Shown here: piece after piece, positions 8,783-24,367 of the stretch
Layout: every line of letters starts with the position of its first letter
Position numbering within the stretch: the stretch's first letter is position 1
Origin: a virus
Lineage: Duplodnaviria > Caudoviricetes
IMG/VR virus record: IMGVR_UViG_3300021057_000003
Span: 1 to 50,370 of that record
Length of the DNA: 50,370 bases
Strand: one strand, 5' to 3'
Made by a program: the position numbers and the translations under genes
The notes under the pieces: generated by a model
Told to the model about the DNA's origin: nothing
The model's input: the letters and a program-made list of their open reading frames with translations, nothing else
Database searches by the model: none

Positions 8783-9496
8783 TCAGGCCATCTCGACCAC
8801 GTTGTCCATGATCGTGTGGAGCCTGGTCGTCGTGCTCGGATCTTCTGCCACACGGCCTGCGAGTGCGAAGGTTGCGGCGTTGAAGAGACGCCACACCGAC
8901 TTGTGCCCCCAGTCGTGCATGGGGTTGTGCCACTGCCGCATGACATCGGGGATGCGCTGGAGGTTGATGATGTCCTTGCGGTACATCTCCATCACGGCGT
9001 GGTCCGCCAGCGCGTCCGAGAGCTCCTTGCCCTGGTACGTGAGGAGCTTCGCGTTCTGCGTCGCACGTTGCTCCGCCAGGGGTTCCACGAGTTCGGAAAT
9101 GAGTGCCGGAAGTTCATGCTTCACCTTCAGGGTGTGCTTGCGCTTCACCACCTGGTCGGCGACGAAGGCGAGGTTGTCACAGACGAACACGCGGGAGCCG
9201 AAGGCCAGGCCGATGGGCATGGACTTGTCGTGGCTGTTGCGGAGGCCCACCATGTCGGTGTAGTCGCCGTACGGAGACTTCAGCGTGAGGACGCCGAAGT
9301 ACCGTGCGCCGTCGCGGGTAACGCCGTGGTGCTCTTCCACCACTTCATGCCCGTAGAAGGACAGCATGTGCTTCACGATGTCCACGATCCTCGCGTGCGG
9401 AATCGGAACATGAGAAGCCGTAGCTTCAGGAGTGGGAAGCATTGCGAGTGCTTCATACTCCACTGGCTCTGCGCCAGCGTGCAAAATAAGGGACAT
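8783..9496 (-). CDS. DUF932-family protein
   Basis: PEATASHVPIPH...GLRNSHDKS...GSRVFVCDNLAF...WRLFNAAT; SD GAAAGGAG. Confidence 0.8.
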   Translation of the reverse strand: MSLILHAGAEPVEYEALAMLPTPEATASHVPIPHARIVDIVKHMLSFYGHEVVEEHHGVTRDGARYFGVLTLKSPYGDYTDMVGLRNSHDKSMPIGLAFGSRVFVCDNLAFVADQVVKRKHTLKVKHELPALISELVEPLAEQRATQNAKLLTYQGKELSDALADHAVMEMYRKDIINLQRIPDVMRQWHNPMHDWGHKSVWRLFNAATFALAGRVAEDPSTTTRLHTIMDNVVEMA

Positions 9497-9554
9497 GGCA
9501 CGCTCCTTTCAAATGAACAAAGTGCCACTACAAGTAAACCATGCCGGATGTGTA

Positions 9555-9992
9555 TTAACTAATCAGGTCAGGGTTCTCGTAGATGTTGCCTAAAACCTCG
9601 TATTGGGAGTCACTCATGCCAAATCCCATCATGAGATCACCAGCAGCATTGACTATGTTGTAGTCGCACCCTTCTGTGTCCCACTGCACCAGTCCTGTTG
9701 CTTGCAGTCTGTCTGCGCCATAGTTTCTTCGCGCTGTTCGTTGTATTTGTTCGTCCTCGTAGTTGAGTCGTGTGTCACAACGAACAACATCCCCCTCGTA
9801 AATCTCCTTCCCGTTCTTGTCCTTGAGGCCGGTGTATTGCATTACCTCGTACTCTGCGTGTAGGTCGCAGTCGCCGTTCTCATCAACGAACGGATAAGGG
9901 AAGCCCTCGTATGAAGCATCATCTAAACTGAACTCACTACCCATCTTCTTTTTCTTCTTGTCCCACGCCCTAAACTTAATTTCCCGTTTCAT
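9555..9992 (-). CDS. yopX: YopX-family phage protein
   Basis: MKREIKFRAWD...MQYTGLKDKNGKEIYEGD...EVLGNIYENPDL; start reassigned to 9992. Confidence 0.92.
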   Translation of the reverse strand: MKREIKFRAWDKKKKKMGSEFSLDDASYEGFPYPFVDENGDCDLHAEYEVMQYTGLKDKNGKEIYEGDVVRCDTRLNYEDEQIQRTARRNYGADRLQATGLVQWDTEGCDYNIVNAAGDLMMGFGMSDSQYEVLGNIYENPDLIS

Positions 9993-10077
9993 ATACACCC
10001 ACCCTACACCACACACAAAAAAATGCACACCCGAAGATGTGCATAAGTCCAGATGCCCGAAGGCCGCTGGTTCTGGG

Positions 10078-10338
10078 TCAGTCCTGGTTAGCGATGAACT
10101 CTTCCGCCCTCTCGGCCACCTTGGCAAGCGAGAGGAGGTCGGAGTGGCCGTAGCTGTCACCATCGTCTTTCCAGTTCCCTTCGCGATCCTTGTAGGACCG
10201 GGAGAAGGTCGTGTTGTAGTGCGGCTTGTCAGTGCCGTTCTTCCAGACGCTGGCTTTCACCAGGCCGATGCGGAACGTCGCAACCGGGAGCGTCTTCTGC
10301 TCATGTGCCGGTGCCGGTGCCGGGGGTGCTTTTGCCAT
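10078..10338 (-). CDS. Putative ssDNA-binding protein (PC4/Whirly-like)
   Basis: VKASVWKN...FSRSYKD..G.WK...DL..LAKVA; SD AAGGAG before ATG 10338. Confidence 0.6.
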   Translation of the reverse strand: MAKAPPAPAPAHEQKTLPVATFRIGLVKASVWKNGTDKPHYNTTFSRSYKDREGNWKDDGDSYGHSDLLSLAKVAERAEEFIANQD

Positions 10339-10409
10339 GGTGGTCTCCTTGGGTGATGGCAACTTCACTAAAGCATGGCAATCGTGCTCATGCAAAGCTC
10401 ACCTGGGGA

Positions 10410-10925
10410 TTACTTGATCTTCCGCGGCTGGTGCACTTCATCTGCCGCGAGGAAGCGGTCGATCTTGCCGTCACGGTAGACCGGGAAGACGATCCTGCCT
10501 GCGTGCGTGGACTTCGGCGGGGCGACACCGATGCCCCATGCCTTCGCATCTGCCGGCTCGATCCCGCACGCGTCGAGGAGCTCGTGCTCGGTGAGGAGCT
10601 TCGCCTGGTATGCGATCGGGTCGAAACCCTCCTTCTTCTCGGGCTTCGAGTCCAGGCTGAACTCCTTGCGGAGCGCTGCGGCCGCTTCGCCCATCTTTAC
10701 CTGCTTCACATGCGCGTAGAGGCCGGTGCAGTCACCGCCTTCCTTCTCACCGAAGCAGAAGAACTTCCCCTTCTCCGGTGTGATGGCGAGGGATCGGTGA
10801 TCCCCCTTTCCACACGGGCATTTGCACCGCTGGGTGCCTCCGTTCCCTTCGGGCTTGAGCTCCAATCCGAGGAGCTTCACCACTTCAAGGATCGGAACGT
10901 TTTCTCTGATCTGTTGAAAGTCCAC
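10410..10925 (-). CDS. CHC2 zinc-finger (primase N-terminal-like) protein lacking TOPRIM
   Basis: CPC...D.RSLAITPEKGKFFCFG...GGD; GRIVFPVY; SD AGGAGG. Confidence 0.8.
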   Translation of the reverse strand: MDFQQIRENVPILEVVKLLGLELKPEGNGGTQRCKCPCGKGDHRSLAITPEKGKFFCFGEKEGGDCTGLYAHVKQVKMGEAAAALRKEFSLDSKPEKKEGFDPIAYQAKLLTEHELLDACGIEPADAKAWGIGVAPPKSTHAGRIVFPVYRDGKIDRFLAADEVHQPRKIK

Positions 10926-10968
10926 GGCAACCTCCTATAAAAGAACTGTGCCGTGTACACACTAACAT

Positions 10969-11922
10969 CTAGCTTATGTACTTGAAAGGCTTGTACCCTG
11001 AGCGTTCCCACTCCACATTCAGAAGATTGAAGATCTCCTTCGGTGGATGGAAGATCTGTCCGAAGGCAGGAATGACATACGTGATGATGTAATCGCACTT
11101 GCCTTCGGGGTTTGTTGGCGAGGTAAATTCCTCTTTCACGTATCGTAGGAATTTCTGCCTGCGGGCTTCTGTAGTAGTGATGAATACGAACCTGGCCCGG
11201 CAATCCACCTTGAACATCTCCTTGTAGAGTTTTCCGCCGATGAGGAAGCGAGCTGCCCGGATCTTTGGGAAGTAGGCGTCGTGCCCCTCGGTCGCACGGT
11301 CGATTTCAAAGAAGTTCAAGTACCCTTTGTCAGTCTCAAGGTAGTTGATGCCGTCCGGGGTATATGCCCTTCCATCGAGCTCCATCTTCAAGGGATTTTC
11401 AAAGAGGTTCTTGAAGACGGGATGCTTCTGTCTCCTGGGCTCGGGCCAGCCAGCTTCCGCAAGGATCTGGATCTGCGATTTGAAGGGGACCGCTTCCTTC
11501 TGCGCCCAGTACTCAAAAGCTTCAGACACACAGCCGGAAAAGACCTGGTGCTTATGGTCTCCACGCATCGTGGGTGCGTAGGGGGAGAGCTTGTCTTCCT
11601 GCTTCAGGACCTCAAGTGCCTTGTCCGTGAGCTCGTGGACCAGTTCGTTCCAGCGGGGGTCGATCGTATGGAACTGCTTTGCAGGCCGGGAGAGGTAGCC
11701 TGCGCGTGCAAGCTGCGTGAGACGGTCGGTCGTTGAGCAGCGGTCGCGGTGGATGTGCTCGGTGAGCTTGTGGAGGTAGCTCGTCGTTGCCCTGCCCCCG
11801 TGGCAGTACATGAAGTAGAACCAGATCAAGTCCCGAGGCGTAAGCACAACATCATAGCCCCGCTCCTTCTGAGGAACGTTCCTTAGTTTCCGTCCTAAGG
11901 TGTCATGTGTCCGTACTTCCAT
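10969..11922 (-). CDS. Replication-relaxation (Replic_Relax) family protein
   Basis: N-terminal wHTH LTPRD...RL.QL...GYL.R; GDHKH; PD-(D/E)XK-like TPDG...FEIDRATE; RFVFITT...R; adjacent to coupling-protein ATPases. Confidence 0.75.
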   Translation of the reverse strand: MEVRTHDTLGRKLRNVPQKERGYDVVLTPRDLIWFYFMYCHGGRATTSYLHKLTEHIHRDRCSTTDRLTQLARAGYLSRPAKQFHTIDPRWNELVHELTDKALEVLKQEDKLSPYAPTMRGDHKHQVFSGCVSEAFEYWAQKEAVPFKSQIQILAEAGWPEPRRQKHPVFKNLFENPLKMELDGRAYTPDGINYLETDKGYLNFFEIDRATEGHDAYFPKIRAARFLIGGKLYKEMFKVDCRARFVFITTTEARRQKFLRYVKEEFTSPTNPEGKCDYIITYVIPAFGQIFHPPKEIFNLLNVEWERSGYKPFKYIS

Positions 11923-11972: not shown

Positions 11973-13613
11973 CTAATCGTCGTTCCGTGAGTCGTCGTGC
12001 TCCGGGATGATGCGCTCCACTTTATCTGCGGCGAATCGCTCTCTGTTTTCTCGGAGCAACGCTTTGAGGTCATCGCGCTTCGGGAGCCGGTCAAGCGAGC
12101 CGTACTCTACATCAATCACCGCGCTTTGCCCGCCCTTCAGGTGGGTGAAAAACTCAAGTTTCCTGAGGCCCATAAGCGCTTCAGGCTCAGTGTGCATGTC
12201 GTCCGCAAGCGCACGCGCATCCTTCGCAGAAATACCGCAGACAGCCTTAATCGAAGTGTTGGAAATGACGGAGTGTTCAACAGTCTTGGGAATCTGCCCT
12301 AACGATTGAAACGCCAAGGTGAGCCCGAGCTTGTACTTCCGCCCTGTCTCCAAGATGTTCGAGGTTTGCTCAGACATGACGGGCGCGGCCTCGTCTATGT
12401 ACAAGAAGACGGGCAGGTAGTCTCCGCCCGGATCGCGCTCCTGGATCGCTTGGAAGATGAGCGCGGTGATGAAGCGCGTAAAGAAAGCCGACCCCTCGTC
12501 CTTTAGGAAGCTGCGGGCAGTGTTGATAAGCACCACAGAGCCGTTGTCCAGAATCTCCCGCATGTTCAGCTTGGTTCTGGGAGCTGAGAACATCCTTTCA
12601 AGGGCGGTGTTTGAAAGAATCGAATAGATCCGCCTCCTGATCTGCTCACGGGTTTCCTTGAAGCCGCTCCCCATGTATTCGTTCTTGAAAAACTCCTGGG
12701 CGGTGCGTGAGAGCTTCCCAATATGCGGAGCGTGGACCTTGAATTTATCGTCGGTGAGAAGGTCGAGGAGCGTATGGATGGTCGCGTCTTCGATCACCAG
12801 GCAGAGCCGAATGAGCATTTCAAGCGGAAGTCTCTGCTTTGCAGTGACGCTGGAATCCATTGACTCCAGGACAAACAAGAGGAGTTCGACAACCGAGTTG
12901 AAGTTCTTTTCGCGTTCGTAGGCGGTGTCTCCACCAGTATTGAAGTCAAACAGGGATAGTGCGATGGGATGGTCTACATCGGTAGGATCAATGACAACTG
13001 CACGTTCACGAGGGAAGCGGACGCGAAGGATCTTGTGGATCAAGTCCCCTTGCGAATCGAATACCACCAGCGTGCAGGGCTTGCGGAGGTCTTCTGCAAT
13101 CCACGAAGAGAGAAGCTGTGTCTTCCCGACCCCAGTTCCGCCAAGTACCAGCGTGTGTTCAAGCCTGAGTGCGTCGGGTATCTCGAATTTCGGGGGCTCA
13201 GGTGGTGGTTCGGGTTCCGGCTCAGGAGGTAGCACAGGAAGTGGGGGAGGCTCCTGATTCTTCTCAAAGTACGTGATGTACTGAAACCAGCCAGAAAGAA
13301 TAAGCGCTCCAGCGGACGCACCAAACGCAAGCCATATGAGTGTTGCGTAGAACCAAGATTCCGGTGGTTTGAACTTCTCGAATGCAAGCAATGTCGAGGC
13401 GAAGATAAGTGCTGAAAGTCCGGCAAGGATATACGTCTCAAGCGAGTATGAAACTGTAGGGGGTAAGTCGTGTGGTGTTCGAGGATTGAGGAGATTAAGC
13501 TTGATGATGCGTGTCCGTTCTACCGCGACTGCTTGTCGAGCCTTGAAGAGTTTGTAGCCGTGCCAGAAAGCAAATGCTGAAGGAACAATGAGGAGTGCAA
13601 ACAAGTACAGCAC
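11973..13613 (-). CDS. VirD4/TraD/TrwB-like type IV coupling ATPase with N-terminal TM segments
   Basis: HTLVLGGTGVGKT, FDSQGD, LYIDEA, GRKYKLGLTLAFQSLGQ; SD AGGAG. Confidence 0.85.
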   Translation of the reverse strand: MLYLFALLIVPSAFAFWHGYKLFKARQAVAVERTRIIKLNLLNPRTPHDLPPTVSYSLETYILAGLSALIFASTLLAFEKFKPPESWFYATLIWLAFGASAGALILSGWFQYITYFEKNQEPPPLPVLPPEPEPEPPPEPPKFEIPDALRLEHTLVLGGTGVGKTQLLSSWIAEDLRKPCTLVVFDSQGDLIHKILRVRFPRERAVVIDPTDVDHPIALSLFDFNTGGDTAYEREKNFNSVVELLLFVLESMDSSVTAKQRLPLEMLIRLCLVIEDATIHTLLDLLTDDKFKVHAPHIGKLSRTAQEFFKNEYMGSGFKETREQIRRRIYSILSNTALERMFSAPRTKLNMREILDNGSVVLINTARSFLKDEGSAFFTRFITALIFQAIQERDPGGDYLPVFLYIDEAAPVMSEQTSNILETGRKYKLGLTLAFQSLGQIPKTVEHSVISNTSIKAVCGISAKDARALADDMHTEPEALMGLRKLEFFTHLKGGQSAVIDVEYGSLDRLPKRDDLKALLRENRERFAADKVERIIPEHDDSRNDD

Positions 13614-13622
13614 CGAAGGCTC

Positions 13623-14750
13623 CTATACCAACTGTGATTTGCACCGGCGAATGATCTTCTGCGCCTGGTGCGTGGGAAGGTAGTTGTGCCGAGGCATGAG
13701 CATCTGCTGGCGCTTGCCGTGGATCAGGGTGTACGCCTGGTGATCGGGGAGGTCTTCAAGCTGCGGATCAGTGTTTTCTTGCGTGAGAAGGAGTTTCGGC
13801 GCAAGCCTCTCCGAGTCTTCCAAGCTGGTCCTGAATGCAACGAGCCTCATGCTCGACAGTATGGTGTCCCGCTCGTCCTCGTGCAACTGGGAAAGGAACT
13901 GCACCGCAATCGTTGTGGTGAGGTGGGGACAGCGGACGAGAAGATCCCGAAGCAAGGCAGAGGGGAAGGCGTGGGCATGGTCGATGTAGACCATGGAGCG
14001 GAGTCCGCCTACTCCGGCCGCAATGAGGGAGGTGAGAACGAGCGACCCGAGCAACTTCGTGCCGCGCAACCCCAATTCACCCTCGTTCAAGGACACAAGG
14101 ACAATCTTGTCCTTGAAGACCAATTTGTTTGTCTTTTTGTCAAGGACATCACGGATCACCGGGTCGATGAAGATTGCAAGCAATCGGGACAAAATGCTTT
14201 CAGTCTTCTCGTCGCGCTTCTTATCCTTTTCGAAGATCTCCCATTCCTCAAGGACAATGCTGTCCGATACGTGCACGAGCATTTGCTTCCGATACTCATC
14301 ATCCAAGAGGAGTGTTCGGAGATTCTTGAGGGAGCCGTATCCAGCCTCAAGGATAGAAGCGACACCGATCGTGGCGTAGCGGTCAATGCGTGTGGTTTCG
14401 ACGGCTGAGGGCCAGACCCCTTTGAACATCTCCACGATGAGGGAAGTGACGAGTGCTCGCTCGGAAGTGCGGACTCCCGCTAGGGGGTTGAAGGCAAAGG
14501 GAAAGAGCGAAGGCTTGAAGAGGATGACATCCTTCTGCCGTTCCGGGGGAATGTAGTCCAGGATGACATCAATGGCGTGCCCTTTAGGGTCAATGAATAC
14601 GCCGCTTTTGCCTTTATAGATCTGGTCTAAGAAGAGCCTGATGAGCGCTTCTGATTTCCCTGTGCCAGGCACGCCAAGGAACAGTTGATTAACCCACTTC
14701 GTGAGAAGCGGGCGATATGGCGCTTTAGGGGAGTAGTAGAAGCCCAGCAT
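13623..14750 (-). CDS. Second TraD/HerA-like ATPase with degenerate Walker B
   Basis: GVPGTGKS, FIDPKG, FNPL, YIDHAH, AVQFLSQL. Confidence 0.8.
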   Translation of the reverse strand: MLGFYYSPKAPYRPLLTKWVNQLFLGVPGTGKSEALIRLFLDQIYKGKSGVFIDPKGHAIDVILDYIPPERQKDVILFKPSLFPFAFNPLAGVRTSERALVTSLIVEMFKGVWPSAVETTRIDRYATIGVASILEAGYGSLKNLRTLLLDDEYRKQMLVHVSDSIVLEEWEIFEKDKKRDEKTESILSRLLAIFIDPVIRDVLDKKTNKLVFKDKIVLVSLNEGELGLRGTKLLGSLVLTSLIAAGVGGLRSMVYIDHAHAFPSALLRDLLVRCPHLTTTIAVQFLSQLHEDERDTILSSMRLVAFRTSLEDSERLAPKLLLTQENTDPQLEDLPDHQAYTLIHGKRQQMLMPRHNYLPTHQAQKIIRRCKSQLV

Positions 14751-15102
14751 AGAGCATGTACCGTAACCTCGGTCCCCTCAAGGTGCCTGGGGACCAGGGC
14801 TTGCAGGCCCGATTAGGGTACATGCGCTGTGCTCGTTCCATGTGGAACGTGAAGAACGGTCCGTATGTATTCTACCGTGAGGAACGGGGGAATGGAGGAA
14901 CTGCCCACCGAACAGCGCCCGAGCGGAGCGCGTGGCCTTCCTACCATGAGCCCGTCCGCGGGTGAGAGTGATCTCCAGATCCGGTGGGAGGAAGGCCACG
15001 CGAGTAGCGGGCGCTGTGAGGTGGAACCTGCTAGCCACGAATAGTGGTAGAGAAGCACCCATACCTATAGGGATGGGATATGGGCACGTAAAAAGCCTCC
15101 GA

Positions 15103-15534
15103 TTAGGAGGTTGCTTCTGTCTTCTTGCCTTTCTTCGTCTCAGCGAAGGGAAGGTAGGTTCCTCGTTCACCGGACATGATCTTCTGCTCTTTCTTCAGAG
15201 CATTCAGCGTGTTGCCGATTGAACCTTCAAGGGACTTGTCACCCTTTGCTCCCATGTTTTCGAGGAGCTGAGTGCGGCTGATCCCGCTAGGGTTCTGTGT
15301 GATGAGGTCGAGTACCTGTTGCTTGATGCCGGTCTTCCGTGGGCCACGGGTTTGTTTCTTCCCACGAGTAGTGGGGAGCTTGCCCTGAAGAGCGTTCACA
15401 TACGCTTCGATGGCGACGAGCTGCTTCCTGATTCCTTCTTCCTCTTCGTCCAAGGCACGTCTGCGAGGTTCCAGGTCTTCGAGCATCTTCTGTAGACGCT
15501 GTTGCTCCTGCTCCATTTGCTTCGATAGTTCCAA
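15103..15534 (-). CDS. Coiled-coil plus winged-helix DNA-binding protein
   Basis: KQQVLDLITQNPSGISR...IGNTLNALKK; probable TTG start 6 nt after AGGAG. The longer ORF-track call overlaps the tRNA-like RNA. Confidence 0.7.
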   Translation of the reverse strand: MELSKQMEQEQQRLQKMLEDLEPRRRALDEEEEGIRKQLVAIEAYVNALQGKLPTTRGKKQTRGPRKTGIKQQVLDLITQNPSGISRTQLLENMGAKGDKSLEGSIGNTLNALKKEQKIMSGERGTYLPFAETKKGKKTEATS

Positions 15535-15583
15535 TCTCATCTCCTGGTGGTGGAGCGGGGAGTATATGTGACTTCTGAGGCTC

Positions 15584-16577: not shown

Positions 16578-16748
16578 TTACTTTTTCCCTATGAGGGGGA
16601 GGACGATGGCATTCAGTACCACAGCACCGATGAGCCAGGCAAGCGACCACCATGACCATGAGTAGAACGCCATGCCGATGCCTCCCGCCAAGATGATGAG
16701 GCCAACCACCATTTTGGTCATCGTGGAGTCTGTTTCTTTGTCTGTCAT
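16578..16748 (-). CDS. Small two-TM membrane protein
   Basis: Two hydrophobic segments; SD GGAG before ATG 16748. Confidence 0.6.
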   Translation of the reverse strand: MTDKETDSTMTKMVVGLIILAGGIGMAFYSWSWWSLAWLIGAVVLNAIVLPLIGKK

Positions 16749-16796
16749 GGAATGCTCCAAAAAAGAGGGAGCACTTGGCTCCCTGTTGGAATGACC

Positions 16797-16991: not shown

Positions 16992-18090
16992 GCGCGATCT
17001 CCGAAGAGTCGTGCACGACGCCTTGGTAGGCGGGATTGCCACCGAAGGCACTGACGATTTTCAGGATGAATGCGCTGTAAGTCAACAATGCTTCTCGGAC
17101 TTCATCCTCATATTCGTAGCGGTTGTATGTGCGTGCGATAGGGGTGAGCGTGCCTTGGACATGGTTCAAAATCTTCTCGGTGATGTGGATGGGCACCTTG
17201 AGCCTGGCGAGGTTCGTTGAGAACGTGCGCCGGAGGTCGTGGAGCCTCCAGTTCTTCACGCCACAGAGGGCATCGAGCTTCTTCTTCTCCTCGCTCCAGC
17301 ACGGCTCTCCCAAGACGGGAAGGTGCTGTTTCATGAGCGGGGTGATCGGAAGGGTGTGGCTACGGTTGTTCTTCGTTTCCTCGAAGTGAAGGTGGGTTGT
17401 CCCTGTGCCGTACTTCGCAATCTCATTCCGACGGGCTCCAGAGAGCATGAGTACCCTGACCAGGTGGCCGTAGGGCTTGTAGTCGGTGGCGTTCCAGATG
17501 GCAACCAGCTCCTCGTCTGTGAGGACGCGTTCACGGGACTTCAGCTTGTTCGGCATGTCCACCCTGGAGAGGGGATTGACGGTCAAGATGTCCTCTTTGA
17601 CGCACCACATGAAGAAGGTGCGGAGAACCTGTTGCGCCACGTTCTGCGCCGTGTCCTTCCCTGCCAAGTCTTTCAGCTTCTCGGTTACGTCCTTGCGGGT
17701 GATGTGATCGACGCGCTTCGTGAATCCGAAGAAGTTGAGGTAGGTTTTGTAGAGGCGGAGGCTCGTTGCCTTCATTTTGTGCTTCCGAGCCTCCAGGAAC
17801 GCGTCTACGGCCTCTGGATACGGTTTTGGCGTACCAGTCGGTTTCGTGCTGGAAGACCCCGCAAAAACGATTTTTGCTCGAATGCGAGCGTCTTTGAGGG
17901 TGAGGTCGGGGTAGCGCCCGAGGGTGGTGAGCCTCCGCTCCTTCCCCGTGACCACAATGAAGGTCTTTGCGCCCCCTTGCGAGAGGCGAATGCCGAATCC
18001 ACGGAGCGTGGTGTCAAAAATGGTGAGCTGGCCCTTCTCTGGAGCCTTCAAACGCTGAATGAGCAGGTCGGTTAGTTGCGCTTTAGCCAC
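16969..18090 (-). CDS. int: Tyrosine integrase, P4-type, with arm-binding domain
   Basis: LTD..I..LK...FD..LRGFGIR...G.KTF...TLGRYP.LTL.DAR; catalytic SGARRNE, HDLRRT, LNH, Y. Confidence 0.95.
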   Translation of the reverse strand: MAKAQLTDLLIQRLKAPEKGQLTIFDTTLRGFGIRLSQGGAKTFIVVTGKERRLTTLGRYPDLTLKDARIRAKIVFAGSSSTKPTGTPKPYPEAVDAFLEARKHKMKATSLRLYKTYLNFFGFTKRVDHITRKDVTEKLKDLAGKDTAQNVAQQVLRTFFMWCVKEDILTVNPLSRVDMPNKLKSRERVLTDEELVAIWNATDYKPYGHLVRVLMLSGARRNEIAKYGTGTTHLHFEETKNNRSHTLPITPLMKQHLPVLGEPCWSEEKKKLDALCGVKNWRLHDLRRTFSTNLARLKVPIHITEKILNHVQGTLTPIARTYNRYEYEDEVREALLTYSAFILKIVSAFGGNPAYQGVVHDSSEIAHDTQTVK

Positions 18091-18270
18091 TTTTGAGCTT
18101 CCTTTTTCCCGTGGATAGGGGTGATGTGGAATGGTCTACCGCCTACCCCCGAAATGTCAATTTCTTTTTTGAAATCAACGACTTACGATGCGGAATGAGG
18201 TGGTTTGAGGAGGTATTTCACTACTGTTTGTGTATCGTGTCAAGTCCTGAATGTTCTTGTGGATCAACCA
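18091..18270. promoter_or_regulatory. Candidate attP/integrase control region with IHF consensus site
   Basis: Non-coding; AATCAACGACTTA (18173-18185) matches WATCAANNNNTTR; repeated GGAATG motifs. Confidence 0.5.
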
Positions 18271-18281: not shown

Positions 18282-18992
18282 CTAGTCTCTTTTGAGCTTC
18301 TCCCGTACCCATTCGCGATTGATGTGGAAGGTCTGAGCCTCCTCGGTTTCAGCGTCCACGGCGTCCAGAACTTCCTCAATCGTCCTCGCTCGTTCCTCTT
18401 GTGCGTGGCGCGAGAGGGCGGCGAGGAAGTCTTTGTCGTATCGCTTTGCCAGCTCTGTGATTTCAGGATGTGGCTTCTGGCACAAGCAACATTCAAAGTG
18501 CTTGATCTTCTGTCCACATGCGGGAGATTTGTTGTTCCAACAGTGTGAGTGATCGAGCTGGTTGTACGGCACCTTCTCTACGCTCTCGGAGGGGCCAGCC
18601 TGAGCAAGTTCTTCACCTAGTTTGTTGGCTAGCTTTTCATTTACGTCCCATGCGCTCTCTCTGTTCTCAGGCTGGCAGGTGATGCCCTTTCCGCCGTTGT
18701 AGAGTTCTTGCATTGCTTCAGGCGTGAAGTCCCGCATAGGTTCGAGTACTTCTAATACTCTGTTCTCAGTGGGGAAGCCGGAATGTGTGTTGTTTGATGG
18801 TGGAGGGTTTTGTAGTGGCTCGATGTTCTCAGTGGGGGCGGGGGAGTCTTCGATTCTGCCTACAGCGTGCCATGTGATCTTGCCAGTGCCTCCACAAACT
18901 CCGCACGTTCCATCGGCGCAAGGTTTGATGTCAGGGTTCTTCTGGCGGCACTGTGGACAGCTTTCGACTAGGTCCTTTGATGTGGTATTCAT
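18282..18992 (-). CDS. Mosaic hypothetical protein with Zn-finger modules
   Basis: CPQC, CGVC and HSHC...CCLC modules joined by repeated PTEN linkers. Confidence 0.7.
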   Translation of the reverse strand: MNTTSKDLVESCPQCRQKNPDIKPCADGTCGVCGGTGKITWHAVGRIEDSPAPTENIEPLQNPPPSNNTHSGFPTENRVLEVLEPMRDFTPEAMQELYNGGKGITCQPENRESAWDVNEKLANKLGEELAQAGPSESVEKVPYNQLDHSHCWNNKSPACGQKIKHFECCLCQKPHPEITELAKRYDKDFLAALSRHAQEERARTIEEVLDAVDAETEEAQTFHINREWVREKLKRD

Positions 18993-19199
18993 TTTTCTTT
19001 GATGTTATTGTTAATGAGGAAGCAGTGGCTCAAAAGGTTTCTGACCGGCACACGGCACTACTAGAGGTAGTAGGTTCTGTCATGGGGTTCCTCTCCCTTA
19101 TCAGATGCAGGGTGACTTTACAGGGCAATATAAATTCAGAGGTCTGTGAGCACACGTCGGCTCCCTGGCAATTCCCTGCCCGCTTCCTTCACTCCCGAC

Positions 19200-19607
19200 T
19201 TAGTTTCGGGAGTTTTCTTTTGCTCCTTTGATGAGGTTGATAACGTCCTCTAGTGCTTGGTTGTAGCTCTTTCTCTCGCCAACTGTCATAAAGGGGGAGT
19301 TCGATGTTCTCCTGCCGTATGACTTGGTGATGATGTATCGCTTTCCCTCCACCTCCTTCACGAGACGGTCACGTTCTCTTTCTTCGGGAGTTCTTGAATC
19401 ACAGTCGTCCACGCTCTCTCTGTTCTCTGTGGGGGCGGGGCGACAGTCTCCGTGGCTTTCAGTCTTTCCACACCATGTGCAGAAAGGTTCCTCAGTGGGG
19501 GCGGGGCAATCGCAGGAGTTCCATTGGGGTGTGTAGCGCGGGTTTGCGCCGATACCGTGGTCAATGACTCGCTGTGTGCCGTTCGCGCAGTTTGGTTTAT
19601 GTTGCAT
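19200..19607 (-). CDS. Mosaic hypothetical protein
   Basis: PAPTE linkers; shares RLVKEVEGKR...YNQAL.DVI.LIKG with its neighbour. Confidence 0.7.
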   Translation of the reverse strand: MQHKPNCANGTQRVIDHGIGANPRYTPQWNSCDCPAPTEEPFCTWCGKTESHGDCRPAPTENRESVDDCDSRTPEERERDRLVKEVEGKRYIITKSYGRRTSNSPFMTVGERKSYNQALEDVINLIKGAKENSRN

Positions 19608-19851
19608 CTCCTTTGATTAAACTGATAACGTCATCTAATGCTTGGTTGTAGGTGGCGTGTTCCTCGGGATAGCGTCCCAGCACAGTCAGTTTCCGCTTCC
19701 CCTCCACCTCCTTCACAAGACGGTCACTTTCTGCGGTGAGGAGGTCTATGATGAAGTTTTTGATGTCATGACAGTGACATTGGCTCCCGTCAGGTGAATA
19801 CGTCGCATTGGCGAACTTGCGGTCAAACTCCGCCTCCCAGTTTCTATTCAT
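19597..19851 (-). CDS. Hypothetical protein, paralogous C-terminus to 19200-19607
   Basis: DRLVKEVEGKR...YNQALDDVISLIKG. Confidence 0.7.
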   Translation of the reverse strand: MNRNWEAEFDRKFANATYSPDGSQCHCHDIKNFIIDLLTAESDRLVKEVEGKRKLTVLGRYPEEHATYNQALDDVISLIKGDAT

Positions 19852-20032
19852 AGATTTCAGGTGCGCGGATAATGTTCTTCAAGTCGTCAATCACTTGCTC
19901 CAGCGTTTCGTTCTGCTCACACGCCTGGATTGCTCTCTGGTAGGCGTTGTTCTTAGCGTCTCTGATGTCATCATTCATGTTCTTGGGGTTGATTAAGTTC
20001 TTCGTGTAATCCGTTGCAGGATGGGTTGCCAC
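19844..20032 (-). CDS. Hypothetical protein
   Basis: ORF track; start uncertain. Confidence 0.45.
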   Translation of the reverse strand: MATHPATDYTKNLINPKNMNDDIRDAKNNAYQRAIQACEQNETLEQVIDDLKNIIRAPEIYE

Positions 20033-20118
20033 AGTAGCTACAGCATTTGCAGAAAACGTCAGTTTCTCCGCATCCTGGGCATACTCCCTCCCACTCTCCT
20101 TTCTCTGTGGACATGGTG

Positions 20119-20361
20119 TTATGGGACTATCTCATCCAAGTATTCTTGATCTTGAAATGAGCTGTGAATAATCATGGGTTTTGCGTACTGTCCGTCGCTG
20201 TATCCTGTGGCGACTTTTGGCTTGCATGGGCAGTCGATACCACCTAGCTCTCGTTCATTACCTTCGTGCTGGGCTGAGTGTGGTTTGATGTCCGTTTCAG
20301 GGAGAACGTGGACATTCACGCCATCATCAATCGTTAGCCACTTTCCTTTATAGCGTTCCAT
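20119..20361 (-). CDS. Hypothetical protein
   Basis: HVLP..D.KPH...C.CKP...IIH conserved-looking metal-binding motif. Confidence 0.7.
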   Translation of the reverse strand: MERYKGKWLTIDDGVNVHVLPETDIKPHSAQHEGNERELGGIDCPCKPKVATGYSDGQYAKPMIIHSSFQDQEYLDEIVP

Positions 20362-20364
20362 GAT

Positions 20365-20709
20365 CTAGTTGTTATCTGATACCTCTACGTCGCTGTTAGA
20401 TTCTGAAGGGGTGGCGAGGGCTTCGAGTACAAGTTCTTTTACGTGGAAACCTCCTTCGATTACTCCCCGTGCATAGTCACCCCATTTTTCCTTGTCACCT
20501 GATAGCGCCACTATGTGTTGCGTTGCGTCCGCGACCTTCGCTTTCTCCTCCTTCCTCGCTTCCTCACTTATCTTGGTGAGGGTGGTGCGGAGCCAGTTAA
20601 TGATGCCGAGCGGGTGCGGATAGGTGTCAGGCGTCCAGTTGTCTTTTGATGTTGGAACGCTGAATGTCTCGCGGAACTCCTCTACTGCGCTTTCGATGTG
20701 TTGGTTCAT
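20365..20709 (-). CDS. Hypothetical protein
   Basis: ORF track; operon packing. Confidence 0.65.
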   Translation of the reverse strand: MNQHIESAVEEFRETFSVPTSKDNWTPDTYPHPLGIINWLRTTLTKISEEARKEEKAKVADATQHIVALSGDKEKWGDYARGVIEGGFHVKELVLEALATPSESNSDVEVSDNN

Positions 20710-20797
20710 GACTTGTCGCTTAAGTCTTCTAATGCCTTTGCGATGCGGCTCAGCGGGAAATACAGAATCCAGGCTGAAACCACGAGTCCGAGGTACG

Positions 20798-21103
20798 TCA
20801 TACCTCCTTACTTGCTGACGGGGGTAAGGGGGACTGTGCTTTGCCTTTGATGTCGTAGTAGCGACTTTTCCATACGCCGATAATGCGGAGTAAGTGGCTT
20901 TCTCTCGCTCTGTTCATCGGACTTTCCTCTTGGGAGGAGCGTTCTTCGAGGTACTGCTTCCACCGTGCGCGCGTCTCCTTCGGGTAGGTTTCCGTGAAGT
21001 GGCTGAATACCATCCCCGTCTTCTCACGGAACTCTGCAAGTGAAATTCCCTTTGTCTGCGCTCGAAGCCAGAGGTCGAGATTTTCTTTTGATGTCTTGCT
21101 CAT
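20798..21103 (-). CDS. Hypothetical protein
   Basis: ORF track; ATGA coupling. Confidence 0.6.
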   Translation of the reverse strand: MSKTSKENLDLWLRAQTKGISLAEFREKTGMVFSHFTETYPKETRARWKQYLEERSSQEESPMNRARESHLLRIIGVWKSRYYDIKGKAQSPLPPSASKEV

Positions 21104-21438
21104 TCTCCGTTTATCTTAGCTCGAATAATCTTCTGTACGTCTGAGAGGGCTTTGCGGTAGCCAGCCTCGTAGAATTGCACCTTTTCTGTTTTACCGCCGT
21201 AAAGTTCAGTGTTAGTAATCATCCCCTCCACCTCCCTCACGAGGTCTTCGGTCTGTATGAGGCTGTAGTCGGTTCCCCAGAGTTCATTGAATAGGTGAAC
21301 GTCTGCGATGAGGTCTGCGAGTGAGGACAGCATCTCCTTGTTCGCTTCTTGCCAGTTGGCGTAGGACTTCTTGAGGATGAATTGCATGGCCTCCTTTTTC
21401 TTTGCGTCGCCCTCCCATGTCTCTTGATGCTGGGTCAT
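21100..21438 (-). CDS. Hypothetical protein with LVREVEG module
   Basis: ATGA coupling; shares a module with 19200-19851. Confidence 0.65.
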   Translation of the reverse strand: MTQHQETWEGDAKKKEAMQFILKKSYANWQEANKEMLSSLADLIADVHLFNELWGTDYSLIQTEDLVREVEGMITNTELYGGKTEKVQFYEAGYRKALSDVQKIIRAKINGE

Positions 21439-21683
21439 GAGTGCTTGCGTGAGGCGAGTAGTGATTCGAGTGTTTTGCGGAGGCTTTCGACCTTACGTTC
21501 CGCGCCCTTCAGTTCTGCATCGACGTCCCCGTAGGCATTACGGCCTGTCTCCTTCTTGGACTGCCACCAGCCGAGAGACCTTTCCTCTTTTGCTTGTTCC
21601 CTTGTGATTTTCATGATGAGCTCGTACTCCGTTACGGGAGCCTTTGTAACGCTGTCACTTTTTGCGATGGTGAGTGAGTTCAT
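21435..21683 (-). CDS. Hypothetical protein
   Basis: ATGA coupling. Confidence 0.6.
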   Translation of the reverse strand: MNSLTIAKSDSVTKAPVTEYELIMKITREQAKEERSLGWWQSKKETGRNAYGDVDAELKGAERKVESLRKTLESLLASRKHS

Positions 21684-21871
21684 TTTGTTTTCTTAGGTTT
21701 CTTGGTAATGGGGAGGGAGTAGGTGATGGTGCAGGGGACGAGTGGAAGATTTGCTGTGTGAGAGTCTTCCTTTAGTAGTGCGATTTCCCATTTGGTTGTG
21801 ATTGCGTGGAGGAATCTACCCTTTGATGAGAGAAGCGCCCACGCCTTCACCTTCCTCTCTGTGGTCTTCAT
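21680..21871 (-). CDS. Hypothetical protein
   Basis: MKTTERKVKAWA...VPCTITYSLP; start reassigned. Confidence 0.55.
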   Translation of the reverse strand: MKTTERKVKAWALLSSKGRFLHAITTKWEIALLKEDSHTANLPLVPCTITYSLPITKKPKKTK

Positions 21872-22080
21872 AAGCCGAGAGAGATCTTCGCCATGTCTAT
21901 CCCGACCTTTAGCAACTCGAACCACAGAACGAGAAGTATCAATGCGATTGGAGAGAAGAGGACTATGCCGACGACTGCCTCAGTTGTGGATGCCTCCGCT
22001 TCGTCGGTGTATTCTTCCTCAGGTTCAAAGCGGCCTGTTGATTGGGACCTTCGTAATCTGAAGGATTCATTAGTTGCCAT
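21868..22080 (-). CDS. Small membrane protein
   Basis: C-terminal TM segment. Confidence 0.6.
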   Translation of the reverse strand: MATNESFRLRRSQSTGRFEPEEEYTDEAEASTTEAVVGIVLFSPIALILLVLWFELLKVGIDMAKISLGL

Positions 22081-22081
22081 A

Positions 22082-22342
22082 TCACTTAATTTTTATGGAC
22101 CACCAGACGAAGCGTGTGTAGCTGCGGATCATCGGGTCCTTCTTCTTAGCGAGTAATGCGTGGAGGTCACTGTCCGTCCACTTCAGTGTGTTTGCGGCCA
22201 ATGCGATCCTGGCTGCAAGCTTCTTCCTCTCTTCACCGATGCAGGTTGTGGCAGACACGATGTCTGCGATGAGCTGTTCCCGGTTGCTTCTTACTTGTAA
22301 TGGTTGTTCTTTTTCGACCCGTTCAAATGTGATCTTCTTCAT
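22082..22342 (-). CDS. Hypothetical protein
   Basis: ORF track. Confidence 0.65.
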   Translation of the reverse strand: MKKITFERVEKEQPLQVRSNREQLIADIVSATTCIGEERKKLAARIALAANTLKWTDSDLHALLAKKKDPMIRSYTRFVWWSIKIK

Positions 22343-22395
22343 GAGATCATCTTCTCATCTGAAGAGTTCATGAGGAAGAGGGAGAGGTGGATAAC

Positions 22396-22578
22396 TTAGT
22401 CGATGCGATGAATAGAAAGCACTGCCATTTGCTTCCCCTGTCTTTCACCCTCCTCTTTCGCATACTTCAACGCGGCGTGTACGGTCGTTCTCATTGATTC
22501 CCAAAAGGATCGGTGGACCCAGACCACCTTCTTAAACTTCTGGTTTTCTTCCATGATGACGACTTCGTAAGTCTTCAT
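22396..22578 (-). CDS. Hypothetical protein
   Basis: ORF track; AAAACATG start context. Confidence 0.55.
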   Translation of the reverse strand: MKTYEVVIMEENQKFKKVVWVHRSFWESMRTTVHAALKYAKEEGERQGKQMAVLSIHRID

Positions 22579-22653
22579 GTTTTCTTGTTCTTATTGATAT
22601 ACCTACACCCTACTCCTCCTGTAGATTCTGTAAATATGGGAGTGTGGATAGTG

Positions 22654-23106
22654 CTAGAGCTTGCGCACACCCATCTTCTTGTTTGCAATAAACTCAGCGG
22701 TTTCAGCCTGCATGACTGTTTTTGTTCCATAGAGATCGTGGAGCTCCTTGTGGCACGGCCAGCAGAGACCGATTACGTGGGCGTCAGTTTCACGACCAAG
22801 AAAACCGTAGTGCGTGTGATGAACGGTCGGGCGATCTATGTTGCCGCAAGCTGCACACCGCTTCCCGTGTTCACGCCAGTAGATCTCGGTCCTAAGTTTC
22901 CATTGAGGTGACTTGATATAGTCCTTGTATTTCCAAGAAACGAAACCCTTCTTGTTGACCCACTGCCCTTTGGCATTGAAGCCCGGCGTTCGTTTCTTCT
23001 TCTGGTTGCGCGGCTCGAATTTCGCCAGGAACTTATCTGCTCTCTGTTCTAAGCTCCTACTTCTATCTCTCTTTCTTTTAGTATCTTCATCTATCTCAAT
23101 CCACAT
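22654..23106 (-). CDS. HNH endonuclease
   Basis: YKDYIKSPQWK...CAACG....VHH.HY..LG.E....IGLC..CHKELH. Confidence 0.8.
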   Translation of the reverse strand: MWIEIDEDTKRKRDRSRSLEQRADKFLAKFEPRNQKKKRTPGFNAKGQWVNKKGFVSWKYKDYIKSPQWKLRTEIYWREHGKRCAACGNIDRPTVHHTHYGFLGRETDAHVIGLCWPCHKELHDLYGTKTVMQAETAEFIANKKMGVRKL

Positions 23107-23526
23107 ACTGTTGATGATGCTTTCTTCGACACTCTCTGGTTCTGCCCCCCCTCCCCCCATGATGGAGGGGATAGAGAGAAGATAAACAGTGAGTTCGAAG
23201 GAAGCGATGCTTTCCCCGAGAAATCTCTTCCAGGCCGAGATTTCAGGCCACTGGCCCAGGAACTATTAATTAGAGTCTGCGTTCCCAGCTTGCGTCTGCC
23301 CCACAGACAAAAGCACGCGGTTAGGCGTGCTTTCTTGAATCCTCTGTTCACCAACCCATGGAAAGTTGAATGACATCCCGTGAGCTGGGTCAGTGAACAG
23401 AAAATTCAGTTGTGATGATTTTGATGTCATTCACCAGTAATCATCTCACACACTCTTCATTCATTTATTCTTCAGACTGTGGATAGTGGGGAGATAAAGA
23501 AAGGCCCCCGGAGTGGGAGCCTGTGG

Positions 23527-23727
23527 CTACTGCGTGAAAACCGTGTAGCCGGGGAAGGTCGGTTGGATCTGCTGCACCTGGGCGATGCACTGGTCCACGA
23601 CCGGGATGGCAGAGGGATGGAGCGAAGGCCGAAGCTGCTCCAGGTAGGCGATGTACAGGCGTCGATCGAGCTCTTGCGAGAGGTCGAACACCAGCATTCC
23701 TACGTCGTCCTGAAGGACGGTCCTCAT
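23527..23727 (-). CDS. Hypothetical protein (SD-led cassette)
   Basis: ATGA-coupled to the upstream gene; followed by a hairpin terminator. Confidence 0.55.
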   Translation of the reverse strand: MRTVLQDDVGMLVFDLSQELDRRLYIAYLEQLRPSLHPSAIPVVDQCIAQVQQIQPTFPGYTVFTQ

Positions 23728-24059
23728 GCTGACACCTTGGCCTTCTGCCAGATGATCGTCTGCTCCTTGGTGTCCTTGTTGACCCTAAGGAGCTTTTCAG
23801 CCTTGCCCTCGTGGTAGATGAGGGCGTAGTAGATCTCGCCCGGCTCGTTCCAGTCCACGCCGACGATGCAGCGATGCACCGTGTAGTTGCGGTTGGCTGT
23901 CTCCGCGAACTTGCCGTCCTTGGTGAGGTGGCAGGTGCCTTCGTAGACTACGGACTTCCCCTGAAGGAGTGTCCGCAGTTCGTTTGCGCGCGCCTGGGAG
24001 GCGGCGAAGAGAAACAGGGCGACGCACACAACGGTGATGCCCTGAAGAATCTTCAGCAT
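23724..24059 (-). CDS. Secreted protein with Sec signal peptide
   Basis: MLKILQGITVVCVALFLFAASQARA; SD AAGGAG before ATG 24059. Confidence 0.7.
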   Translation of the reverse strand: MLKILQGITVVCVALFLFAASQARANELRTLLQGKSVVYEGTCHLTKDGKFAETANRNYTVHRCIVGVDWNEPGEIYYALIYHEGKAEKLLRVNKDTKEQTIIWQKAKVSA

Positions 24060-24220
24060 GACAGTCTCCTTGAAGTGGGGAACGTGGGGTATCCAGCTCG
24101 GTTCCTCGTCTGGATGCATGGCTTGCCGCCGGTTTATCGAAGGTCGGCCTGAAACCGGACAAAGTGCCTGTAGCCCGTCTATCGAGCGCTACGCCTGGCC
24201 GGGAGCCAGGCACCCATCGC

Positions 24221-24367
24221 TCAGGCTGCCAGCCCGAGTTGTTCCCTGTACCTCTTGCGAAGTGCTTCGAGGCAGAACGAGTGGTACGGCATACGGATGC
24301 CGCCTTCCATCTGATGAACAAGCTCAGAAGGAAGAATTGACTTCGCGCACTTGTGGCACACGTACAT
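24221..24367 (-). CDS. 48-aa Zn-finger protein
   Basis: CHKC...YH.FC; SD AGGAGG before ATG 24367. Confidence 0.6.
   Translation of the reverse strand: MYVCHKCAKSILPSELVHQMEGGIRMPYHSFCLEALRKRYREQLGLAA

Follow-up and report, generated by a model that had tools for sequence, protein, structure and literature searches.

The genes of this phage are divided between leaders with and without a Shine-Dalgarno (SD) motif, and this split is confirmed as real and tracks the modules of the genome. The window (the whole stretch of 50,370 nucleotides analysed here) is a complete circular phage genome of 50.2 kb with a 127-nt overlap of its termini. TerL, portal (SU10-like), capsid (HK97-type), internal virion protein and integrase on one circular replicon mark it as a temperate tailed phage. 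We called 76 genes with a heuristic caller of our own in place of an established one, and ~45 of the proteins have no family match. The block comprises positions 8783-18090, with 12 genes (DUF932, YopX, Zn-ribbon primase-like, Replic_Relax, two T4CP-like ATPases, AlpA-like, integrase and others), and the remaining 64 genes are termed the rest. An SD was counted where a core of at least 4 nt lay at an aligned spacing of 3-12. The habitat is soil, two soil metagenome runs carrying DNA of the phage; a single wrapping contig of 50,271 bp is present in run X1, and identical pieces of block and non-block DNA were found together in the second soil run.

With curated starts, 8/12 block genes are SD-led compared with 3/64 in the rest (Fisher p = 3.7e-6). 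Shuffled leaders give an expectation of 1.05 for the block, and 0/5000 shuffles reach 8, while the three in the rest are at chance level (4.9 expected). Five of the block starts (9992, 10338, 15534, 16748 and 16991) are internal candidates that were picked partly for their SD; a terminator hairpin, a repeat found to be non-coding at another site and the length usual for AlpA-like proteins also counted in their favour. The effect is weaker with longest-ORF starts, at 4/12 versus 3/64 (p = 0.01), with 1.5 expected in the block from shuffled leaders (P = 0.045). Given equal freedom of start choice, SDs are found near 8/12 block starts and 2/12 decoys, and near 14/57 starts and 8/57 decoys in the rest. 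Mean anti-SD pairing energies are -6.7 kcal/mol for the block and -1.3 kcal/mol for the rest (Mann-Whitney p = 1.2e-6). A two-component mixture is preferred to a single one (BIC 395.7 vs 404.2), bimodality having been proposed as a test on inspection of the sequence. The strong-pairing component contains 10/12 block genes and 8/64 elsewhere, five of those eight lying at 23.5-26.0 kb.

Table 1. Features of the window with their coordinates, strands, starts and leaders
Feature	Position	Strand	Start and leader	Basis or remark
DUF932 gene	8783..9510	-	ATG 9496; AAAGGAG, 6-nt gap; pairing -9.4 kcal/mol	Pfam DUF932 8e-8
YopX gene	9555..10163	-	likely start ATG 9992	Pfam YopX 4e-23
Small ORF	10078..10352	-	ATG 10338; AAGGAG upstream	no family match
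CHC2 zinc-ribbon (primase-like) gene	10410..10940	-	GTG 10925; AGGAGGT upstream	Pfam Zn_ribbon_DnaG 5e-8
Replic_Relax gene	10969..11922	-	ATG 11922; without SD	Pfam 1e-8
Type IV coupling protein-like ATPase (T4CP)	11973..13627	-	GTG 13613; AGGAG upstream	Pfam T4SS-DNA_transf, TrwB_AAD_bind, TraG-D_C
Second, shorter T4CP-like ATPase (T4CP2)	13623..14750	-	well-spaced SD absent	phrog_5156 3e-22 and alignment
Non-coding stretch	14751..15102	-		MFE -155 kcal/mol, z -6.3 vs shuffles
Coiled-coil protein gene	15103..15548	-	TTG 15534 (or ATG 15540); AGGAG upstream	
HNH endonuclease-like gene	16060..16527	-	without SD	ORF and translation; HNH_3 match, one among 46 proteins scanned, assigned here by reading the sequence
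Small membrane-protein-like ORF	16578..16760	-	ATG 16748; GGAG, 6-nt gap	
AlpA-like HTH gene	16797..17005	-	ATG 16991; GGAG, 7-nt gap	HTH_17 match, one among 46 proteins scanned, assigned here by reading the sequence
Tyrosine integrase, Arm-DNA-bind_3 N-terminus	16969..18104	-	GTG 18090; weak AAAGGA	Pfam and phrog_1 2e-38
Large terminase (1096-2628), exonuclease (7498-8703), small genes on both strands	317..8703	.	all SD-less	
14 tightly packed small early genes	18282..23160	-	A-rich, SD-less	
Second, smaller strong-pairing leader cluster	23527..26035	.	includes ATG 24059, AAGGAG upstream; ATG 24367, AGGAGG, 4-nt gap	around divergent junction ~25.5 kb
Virion operon	29780..50121	-	SD-less except 30949, 48139	PHROGs and Pfam
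Portal	34911-36830	-		virion operon; PHROGs, Pfam
Internal virion protein	36976-40461	-		virion operon; PHROGs, Pfam
Capsid	48142-49119	-		virion operon; PHROGs, Pfam
Decoration-like	49144-49557	-		virion operon; PHROGs, Pfam
Scaffold-like	49579-50121	-		virion operon; PHROGs, Pfam

Every SD motif listed in an earlier, sequence-only reading of the window is present at its start (Table 1), and the SD-less leaders that it quoted were located at 4553, 47221 and 42567. Four block genes have no canonical SD, namely Replic_Relax, T4CP2, HNH and YopX. The first had been named as an exception, correctly, and its homologue in the gammaproteobacterial prophage described below is likewise without an SD. 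T4CP2 has GAGGT 15 nt upstream, outside SD spacing. The leader of YopX is G-rich with a pairing energy of -7.4, and without a canonical SD core; the YopX domain begins at residue 63 of the longest ORF, and ATG 9992 lies 3' of a terminator-like hairpin at 10044-10023. ATG 16748 is directly 3' of another such hairpin (16784-16766), and the repeat upstream of 15540 recurs at 29242-29300, where it is non-coding. The AlpA-like gene overlaps the end of the integrase gene by 23 nt, and this integrase is the sole one found in the genome. Named homologues seen for T4CP are from Pseudomonadota. An Rfam search of the strongly folded stretch 14751..15102 gave no match.

Outside the block, the cluster at 23.5-26.0 kb has strong-pairing starts at 23727, 24059/24119, 24367/24460, 25566 and 25865, and also includes NinB- and NinG-like genes, both without an SD. 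The genes at 24059 and 24367 are of unknown function and lie outside the lysogeny/transfer block. The claim that the split follows function, lysogeny and transfer versus virion, is thus upheld in that the split follows the genome modules, but these two SD-bearing genes cannot be assigned with any certainty to lysogeny or transfer. The two exceptions in the virion operon are AGGAGG with a 2-nt gap at 30949 and AAGGAG with an aligned spacing of 12 at 48139. The former had been noted as the SD of a peptidase; the SD is there, only 2 nt from the ATG, but the peptidase label (29780-30949) is unsupported by Pfam or PHROGs.

The two sets of genes also differ in predicted folding of the region from -30 to +30 around the start. 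The predicted MFE is -7.9 kcal/mol for the rest compared with -13.8 kcal/mol for the internal control (p = 1e-15), whereas that of the block, -13.1 kcal/mol, is control-like (p = 0.81; rest vs block p = 9e-4). Since block start regions are folded like internal sequence, it is likely that block genes rely on SD:anti-SD pairing. Leaders (-20 to -1) contain 37% A and 17% G in the rest, and 24% A and 29% G in the block. A occupies position -3 in 48% of the rest, and the A-richness continues 3' of the start codon; the traits of Bacteroidota-type leaders (A-rich, A near -3, low start structure) are therefore found in the rest of the genome. Genes of the rest follow their upstream neighbour closely, with a median gap of 4.5 nt (≤25 nt for 65% of them), versus 54 nt for block genes. 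Terminator-like hairpins lie directly 3' of four block genes (8769, 10044, 15110 and 16784), and no intergenic ones were found in the 20-kb virion region.

We think it fairly probable that the same host ribosomes read this genome by two known routes of initiation, with the modules divided between them. On the first route the block genes, loosely spaced and apparently separately terminated, would depend on SD:anti-SD pairing for recruitment of the 30S subunit. On the second, the early, recombination, packaging and virion genes lie in long, tightly packed operons. Their A-rich, G-poor, unfolded starts would allow SD-independent initiation on accessible mRNA, probably S1-assisted, with termination-reinitiation at many junctions of ≤25 nt. 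The selective reason for keeping the two grammars apart may be that selection maintains the SDs of the block, whose messages would be structured, low-level and individually regulated in the lysogenic or establishment state. The lytic genes would use the SD-less grammar that is in the majority in proteobacterial hosts. Operon packing alone might generate the same pattern if coupled genes re-initiate without an SD and spaced block genes need one, as the short gaps of the rest would suggest. That is doubtful, given that an SD core is present in just 1 of the 19 non-block genes that stand >60 nt from their upstream neighbour and have to initiate de novo, compared with 6/10 block genes with a gap >40 nt (p = 0.0026). 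Moreover, unfolded A-rich starts are a signal in their own right and go beyond the mere absence of an SD.

Related phages had been proposed as a comparison, and a like split is present in two distant prophages. The first (G001), in an alphaproteobacterial MAG, has 16 genes in common with the window, including integrase, T4CP and Zn-ribbon. SDs are present in 5/13 block genes and 1/34 of the rest (p = 0.004), with a right block boundary that was fixed after the leaders had been seen; with the best nearby start the values are 5/13 and 5/34, which is not significant (p = 0.11). A lysyl-tRNA synthetase that flanks the prophage shares 78-87% identity with proteins of Alphaproteobacteria, Xanthobacteraceae, Hyphomicrobiales and Bradyrhizobium. 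The second (G002) lies in the cultured gammaproteobacterium LSUCC0112, with a 66-nt tRNA-Arg repeat at both ends. It retains the gene order T4CP2-T4CP-Replic_Relax-Zn-ribbon, and has SDs in 3/6 block genes versus 3/43 of the rest (p = 0.019). The folding contrast is present in both prophages, and their Zn-ribbon homologues are SD-led, by GGAGGTG in G001 and AGGAG in G002. The excess of SDs over decoy starts is 0.31 (343 genes) for the host of G001 and 0.48 (185 genes) for that of G002, these being hosts of the relatives and not of the window phage itself. Both hosts make moderate use of SDs, and translate SD-led as well as SD-less genes of their own.

The block is plasmid- or ICE-like in gene content. 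It is tied to phages in G001 and G002, yet T4CP and Replic_Relax also adjoin, in the same order, on a plasmid of Sulfitobacter mediterraneus (NZ_CP081110.1), with 37% identity over 71% of T4CP. The phage differs in linking this pair to T4CP2, Zn-ribbon, DUF932, YopX, AlpA-like and integrase genes inside a virus genome. GC3 is 0.69 in the block versus 0.60-0.64 elsewhere (per-gene p = 0.065), and RSCU correlates at r = 0.80-0.87 between the block and other modules and 0.85-0.90 between those others. The tetranucleotide correlation of the block with the rest, 0.910, is within the control range of 0.843-0.928 (21 windows). The bimodality looked for in GC3 and codon usage is absent. The composition of the block is that of the rest of the genome, so we rejected a recently imported foreign module, and the match points to long co-residence. 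No direct repeats of at least 16 nt, such as might bound a satellite or IME nested in the phage, were found flanking 8.7-18.1 kb.

If the host ignored SDs, in the manner of Bacteroidota or CPR, those of the block could be non-functional relics of import from Proteobacteria. Contigs assigned by binning to Patescibacteria and Ferruginibacter do carry capsid and terminase relatives, the leaders of virion-module relatives with a GC of 35-48% are all SD-less, and SDs are not in excess on a 130-kb contig (G003; -0.07, 91 genes). These binned contigs may however be phages themselves, as one of them (G003 C17) is almost entirely one-stranded with an ORF of 3903 aa. The only relatives with both block and phage sit in proteobacterial chromosomes, whose hosts both use SDs. 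Furthermore, SDs not under selection should have decayed during a long co-residence, but the Zn-ribbon gene has a strong SD in 3/3 elements. Genome-wide absence of SDs of the Bacteroidota type was not found, the block being largely SD-led and both prophage hosts having an SD excess. We therefore regard an SD-ignoring host as unlikely.

The sequence-only reading had invoked separate ribosome populations for the two sets, or by extension a stage-specific, phage-directed change of the ribosome. The partition is indeed sharp, non-compositional and kept over deep divergence, and there is a printed precedent, in that a bS21 encoded by a phage has been suggested to give phage transcripts an advantage in late infection (PMC9723584). 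The idea of selective translation of phage late genes is common to both, but neither bS21 nor any other ribosomal protein was found among the 76 called proteins of this phage. Pfam scans of 10 + 46 + 20 proteins, covering all called genes, gave 0/76 matches to a ribosomal protein, initiation factor or rRNA-modifying family at E ≤ 0.001, ~45 matching nothing at all. Both leader classes are in constitutive use in the prophage hosts, as their genomes and the Caulobacter results (PMC4117421) indicate. Nothing found here supports the proposal, and we consider it very unlikely. Equally improbable is that the SD acts as a switchable address label, with an unrecognised phage product, among the ~45 without a family, blocking or removing anti-SD function in the lytic cycle. 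Host messages and the lysogeny/transfer block would then be silenced together while SD-less, unfolded lytic messages continued, and this would explain a sharp, non-compositional partition kept in alpha- and gammaproteobacterial prophages. That the pattern arose from the way start codons were chosen, or by chance, is extremely improbable: five block starts were curated toward SD-bearing candidates and the block was chosen post hoc by the reader, but the split survives longest-ORF starts and equal start freedom, an independent signal (folding energy) divides the genes likewise, and two further elements replicate it.

The two routes favoured here have counterparts in known systems. In phage lambda the cI message from PRM is leaderless, so that there too a lysogeny gene of a temperate phage initiates otherwise than the lytic genes. 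That is a single leaderless gene, whereas here a whole module differs and the SDs are on the lysogeny side. Caulobacter crescentus is reported to have 75.4% of its genes without an SD, with unstructured starts and translated as efficiently as SD-led ones (PMC4117421). It resembles the present case in that the same ribosomes translate both classes and the non-SD class is the majority, but its classes are described genome-wide and not by module, whereas here they are segregated by module within one 50-kb phage, a segregation kept in distant prophages. Nakagawa et al. 2017 report reduced structure and a symmetric A-rich bias at the starts of non-SD genes in 260 genomes (PMC5397173). The SD-less class of the phage is similarly A-rich and G-poor on both sides of the start with low folding energy; their comparison is between species, while here the contrast is within a genome whose SD class lacks any relaxation of structure. 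In Bacteroidota, translation without SDs is reported to go with a Kozak-like A at -3 (PMC6847099), and the A-rich phage leaders share the preference for A at that position. SDs are missing genome-wide in that group, whereas here one module is strongly SD-led and the related hosts are SD-using Proteobacteria.

The genes of the window divide into a block of integration and DNA-transfer genes and the remainder, and Shine-Dalgarno (SD) motifs are concentrated in the block. In the direction of the minus strand, the first five genes of the block specify an integrase (N-terminus of the Arm-DNA-bind_3 type), an HTH protein resembling AlpA, a small membrane-like protein, an HNH endonuclease and a coiled-coil protein. 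The other seven are two genes for type IV coupling protein (T4CP)-like ATPases, then Replic_Relax, a primase-like gene with a CHC2 zinc ribbon, a small ORF, YopX and DUF932. We called genes with a self-written program based on codon usage, which gave 68 ORFs; nine were added from gaps and one running off the record was removed, i.e. 76 in all. An SD was scored where at least 4 contiguous nt matched AAAGGAGGTGA, with GGAG, GAGG or AGGA included in the match, at an aligned spacing of 3-12. The sequence-only reading had proposed two initiation grammars in this genome, and every SD motif that it listed was found in place. Using longest-ORF starts, an SD precedes 4 of the 12 block genes and 3 of the 64 others (p = 0.01). 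In a curated set, five block starts were shifted to internal candidates, partly on independent grounds. Start 16991 yields an AlpA-sized protein of 64 aa, 16748 lies just past a terminator-like hairpin, and the stretch upstream of 15540 contains a repeat whose other copy is non-coding. Start 9992 lies past a hairpin and ahead of the YopX domain, and 10338 is the first ATG. With these starts the counts become 8/12 and 3/64 (p = 3.7e-6). Shuffling of the block leaders gave an expectation of 1.05, and eight was reached in none of 5000 shuffles. For the remaining genes 4.9 were expected, so that the three observed are at the level of chance. When all genes were given equal freedom of start choice, near starts had an SD in 8/12 block genes compared with 2/12 for decoys, and in 14/57 other genes compared with 8/57.

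The bimodality anticipated in anti-SD pairing energy is also present, with a BIC of 395.7 for two components and 404.2 for one. The strong-pairing component contains ten of the 12 block genes and eight of the 64 others. Of these eight, five are grouped in a second cluster at 23.5-26.0 kb, around the divergence point of transcription, and the other three start at 30949, 43948 and 48139.

A second signal, independent of the SD, is the predicted structure of the start regions, in which the two classes differ. Minimum free energies (MFE) were calculated over -30 to +30 around each start, and random internal windows (mean -13.8 kcal/mol) served as control. Non-block genes have a mean MFE of -7.9 kcal/mol (p = 1e-15 against the control), while block genes have -13.1 kcal/mol (p = 0.81). 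Non-block leaders are 37% A and 17% G, with 48% A at -3, a pyrimidine (C or T) at -1 and codons rich in A behind the start; block leaders are 24% A and 29% G. Taken together, the folding and composition indicate one class that has an SD and unrelaxed structure, and another that lacks an SD and is strongly relaxed.

Gene packing accounts for part of the SD split. Neighbouring genes are close together outside the block (median distance to the upstream gene 4.5 nt) and further apart within it (54 nt). Even so, the core is present in 1 of 19 non-block genes with a gap >60 nt but in 6 of the 10 block genes that are spaced apart (p = 0.0026). Terminator-like hairpins directly follow four block genes, and there are none between virion genes. 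Overall, scans for promoters and terminators were not above shuffles (16 terminator-like sites in the block region against 11.1 +/- 3.5); only the position of the hairpins right behind stop codons is suggestive.

Features of the window with their coordinates and basis
Feature	Coordinates	Strand	Basis or remark
Large terminase	1096-2628		family searches
Stretch without coding ORF	5399-6315		917 nt; neither strand has an ORF with coding potential
Block	8783-18090	minus	9.4 kb
YopX piece	9780-9842		60 nt
T4CP-like pair adjoining Replic_Relax gene	10969-14750
Structured stretch in block	14751-15102	minus	non-coding; folding z -6.3 against shuffles
Structured stretch in block	15678-16059	minus	non-coding; folding z -4.3 against shuffles
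Repeat copy	15593-15677		exact 23-nt and 18-nt repeats, spacing between them differs from other copy
Repeat copy	29242-29300		exact 23-nt and 18-nt repeats
Portal	34911-36830		weak PHROG match
HK97-type capsid	48142-49119		family searches
Leader of scaffold-like gene	50092-50121		compared with 4017-4046 of relative L001
Internal virion protein			family search match
Recombination genes NinB, NinG, two exonucleases			family searches

Related prophages were sought in several ways. Genome contigs scanned with one protein at a time, capsid or T4CP, gave no match, nor did T4CP alone against viral contigs. A terminase profile search returned 54 genome loci in many phyla, only one of which has more than two window genes. 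It lies on a 700-kb contig of a metagenome-assembled genome (G001), where a prophage has, across 60 kb, 16 genes in common with the window, including integrase, T4CP, Zn-ribbon, terminase, scaffold, decoration protein, capsid, portal and YopX. The flanking lysyl-tRNA synthetase (LysRS) has 78-87% identity to proteins labelled Alphaproteobacteria, Xanthobacteraceae, Hyphomicrobiales and Bradyrhizobium. The sole 16S gene of the bin (C16 157535-159061, locus L065) is on a different contig from the prophage, and its beginning is unlike that of alphaproteobacterial 16S. The mismatch with the LysRS may reflect contamination of the bin, and the prophage contig was classified by LysRS and not by this 16S. 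A T4CP profile search led to the cultured Gammaproteobacteria bacterium LSUCC0112 (G002), whose assembly contains no 16S. Its 36.7-kb prophage-like element (C12, ~186,596-223,367, loci L105-L107) is bounded by a 66-nt direct repeat of tRNA-Arg(tct) with 92% identity, and the integrase and the T4CP block are at its opposite ends. T4CP2 (the second, shorter ATPase), T4CP, Replic_Relax and Zn-ribbon are in the order of the window, with identities of 40, 51, 35 and 33% respectively, and the integrases are 37% identical. The ~40 further phage-like genes are without similarity to the virion genes of the window. An attP fragment resembling this tRNA-Arg was not found in the window, where matches are at most 13 nt long.

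Both the SD split and the folding contrast recur in these two prophages. In G001 an SD is present in 5/13 block genes and 1/34 others (p = 0.004), with the right boundary of the block set after the leaders had been seen; given free start choice the contrast is not significant (p = 0.11). In G002 the corresponding counts are 3/6 and 3/43 (p = 0.019). The mean MFE of non-block leaders is -11.4 in G001 (controls -16.3, p = 1.5e-5) and -7.4 in G002 (controls -11.7, p = 7e-10), with block values of -13.6 and -12.9 respectively. A strong SD precedes the Zn-ribbon gene in each of the three elements, and Replic_Relax lacks one in the window and G002. Relatives of the virion module on contigs of 35-48% GC, some binned as Patescibacteria, also have SD-less leaders, and it is doubtful that such bins are the true hosts. 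One contig of 129,872 bp (G003:C17, loci L113-L119), binned as Candidatus Staskawiczbacteria, is almost wholly one-stranded and SD-less, with a 3903-aa ORF and relatives of the window capsid, portal and terminase. It may be a large phage and not host DNA, and is therefore no firm guide to how CPR bacteria use the SD.

The block is not recently foreign. Its tetranucleotide correlation with the rest is 0.910, where 21 control windows of the same size span 0.843-0.928, and RSCU correlations are 0.80-0.87 for the block and 0.85-0.90 among the other modules. The division looked for in GC3 and codon usage is not found; GC3 is 0.69 in the block and 0.60-0.64 elsewhere (per-gene p = 0.065), and the signature is within the control range. 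Block and non-block DNA both occur as identical fragments in a second soil run, from a separate study. In its ancestry the block is plasmid-like. On a Sulfitobacter plasmid (L112 8242-11268) T4CP adjoins Replic_Relax, the arrangement also present in the window, and among the best 120 of 315 T4CP homologues (E <= 0.001) those with an organism name are Pseudomonadota. These proteins may allow conjugative mobilisation of the phage, or they may serve replication. Several unrelated contigs in both soil runs match only the short YopX piece and then diverge, and this is a conserved YopX core common to other elements of the same soils.

SD use in the two hosts was estimated by comparing candidate starts with decoys, namely in-frame start codons from far inside the same genes, using a core of at least 4 nt. 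The SD excess fraction is 0.31 for G001 (400 kb, 343 genes) and 0.48 for G002 (185 genes), which indicates that genes with and without an SD are translated together in both. In this they resemble Caulobacter, for which PMC4117421 gives 75.4% of the genes as without an SD, the same translation efficiency for the SD and non-SD classes, and an unstructured start region. The window phage carries only a soil metagenome habitat label, and one of the two soil runs may be the source of the record. A Bacteroidota host, first guessed from the A-rich leaders, was dropped given the G001 and G002 prophages, their SD-using hosts and the Pseudomonadota T4CP homologues.

The simplest account of the partition requires no special ribosomes. 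The block would be a plasmid/ICE-type module of spaced genes, apparently terminated one by one, whose structured leaders would require SD pairing. The lytic genes would take the non-SD, unfolded-leader route that is the majority route in such hosts, with extra help from coupling at the many junctions of at most 25 nt. The contrast has been kept while block protein identity fell to 30-51% and composition became uniform, which argues that selection maintains both styles. We infer that these mirror expression regimes, low and individually regulated for lysogenic or establishment genes and bulk for lytic genes. Phage-directed translation via bS21 has been proposed in other phage work (PMC9723584). 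The idea that distinct ribosome populations translate the two gene sets of the window finds no support, as neither initiation factors nor ribosomal proteins are matched by any of its 76 proteins. About 45 of these match no family, which leaves the idea a small probability.

The two routes of initiation are textbook knowledge, as are the structural features that go with them (PMC4117421, PMC5397173, PMC6847099). A clean module-level partition within one virus appears to be new; no description of a conserved partition of this kind in a phage was found in full-text searches of an open-access library. The partition leaves no trace in composition and has been kept in prophages whose common block proteins have diverged so far. 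It offers a natural system in which to ask what each kind of initiation suits, with one related prophage in a cultured bacterium. Translation signals serve in gene calling and in guessing the hosts of phages, and this genome would mislead a single-model caller or host predictor. If the partition does reflect stage-specific control of translation, it would add a new layer to the lysis-lysogeny decision.

The first 127 nt of the window recur at its end, and a 50,271-bp contig in one soil metagenome run wraps around it, indicating a circular genome of ~50.2 kb. The minus strand carries nearly all the genes. Twenty virion proteins scanned jointly in Pfam gave one SU10_portal match, a beta-helix tailspike domain and a lectin domain, and one of 46 small proteins scanned matched Cpn10, a GroES-like co-chaperonin (8e-16). 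No tRNA was found in the window, nor does any Rfam family reach gathering score there. Stretches of 20 kb and 15.7 kb had no close DNA match in the phage collection by megablast. GC skew and AT skew switch sign at ~4-6 kb. The two structured stretches of the block, for which there is no Rfam family, could be oriT, attP or non-coding RNAs. The two repeat copies lie upstream of minus-strand genes 13.6 kb apart, and may be a shared promoter or operator. The scaffold-like gene of the window has AAGGAG 22 nt upstream of its start. The 25 nt ahead of this gene differ at one position from those of L001, where the proteins are 62% identical; conservation is far higher in the leader than in the coding sequence.
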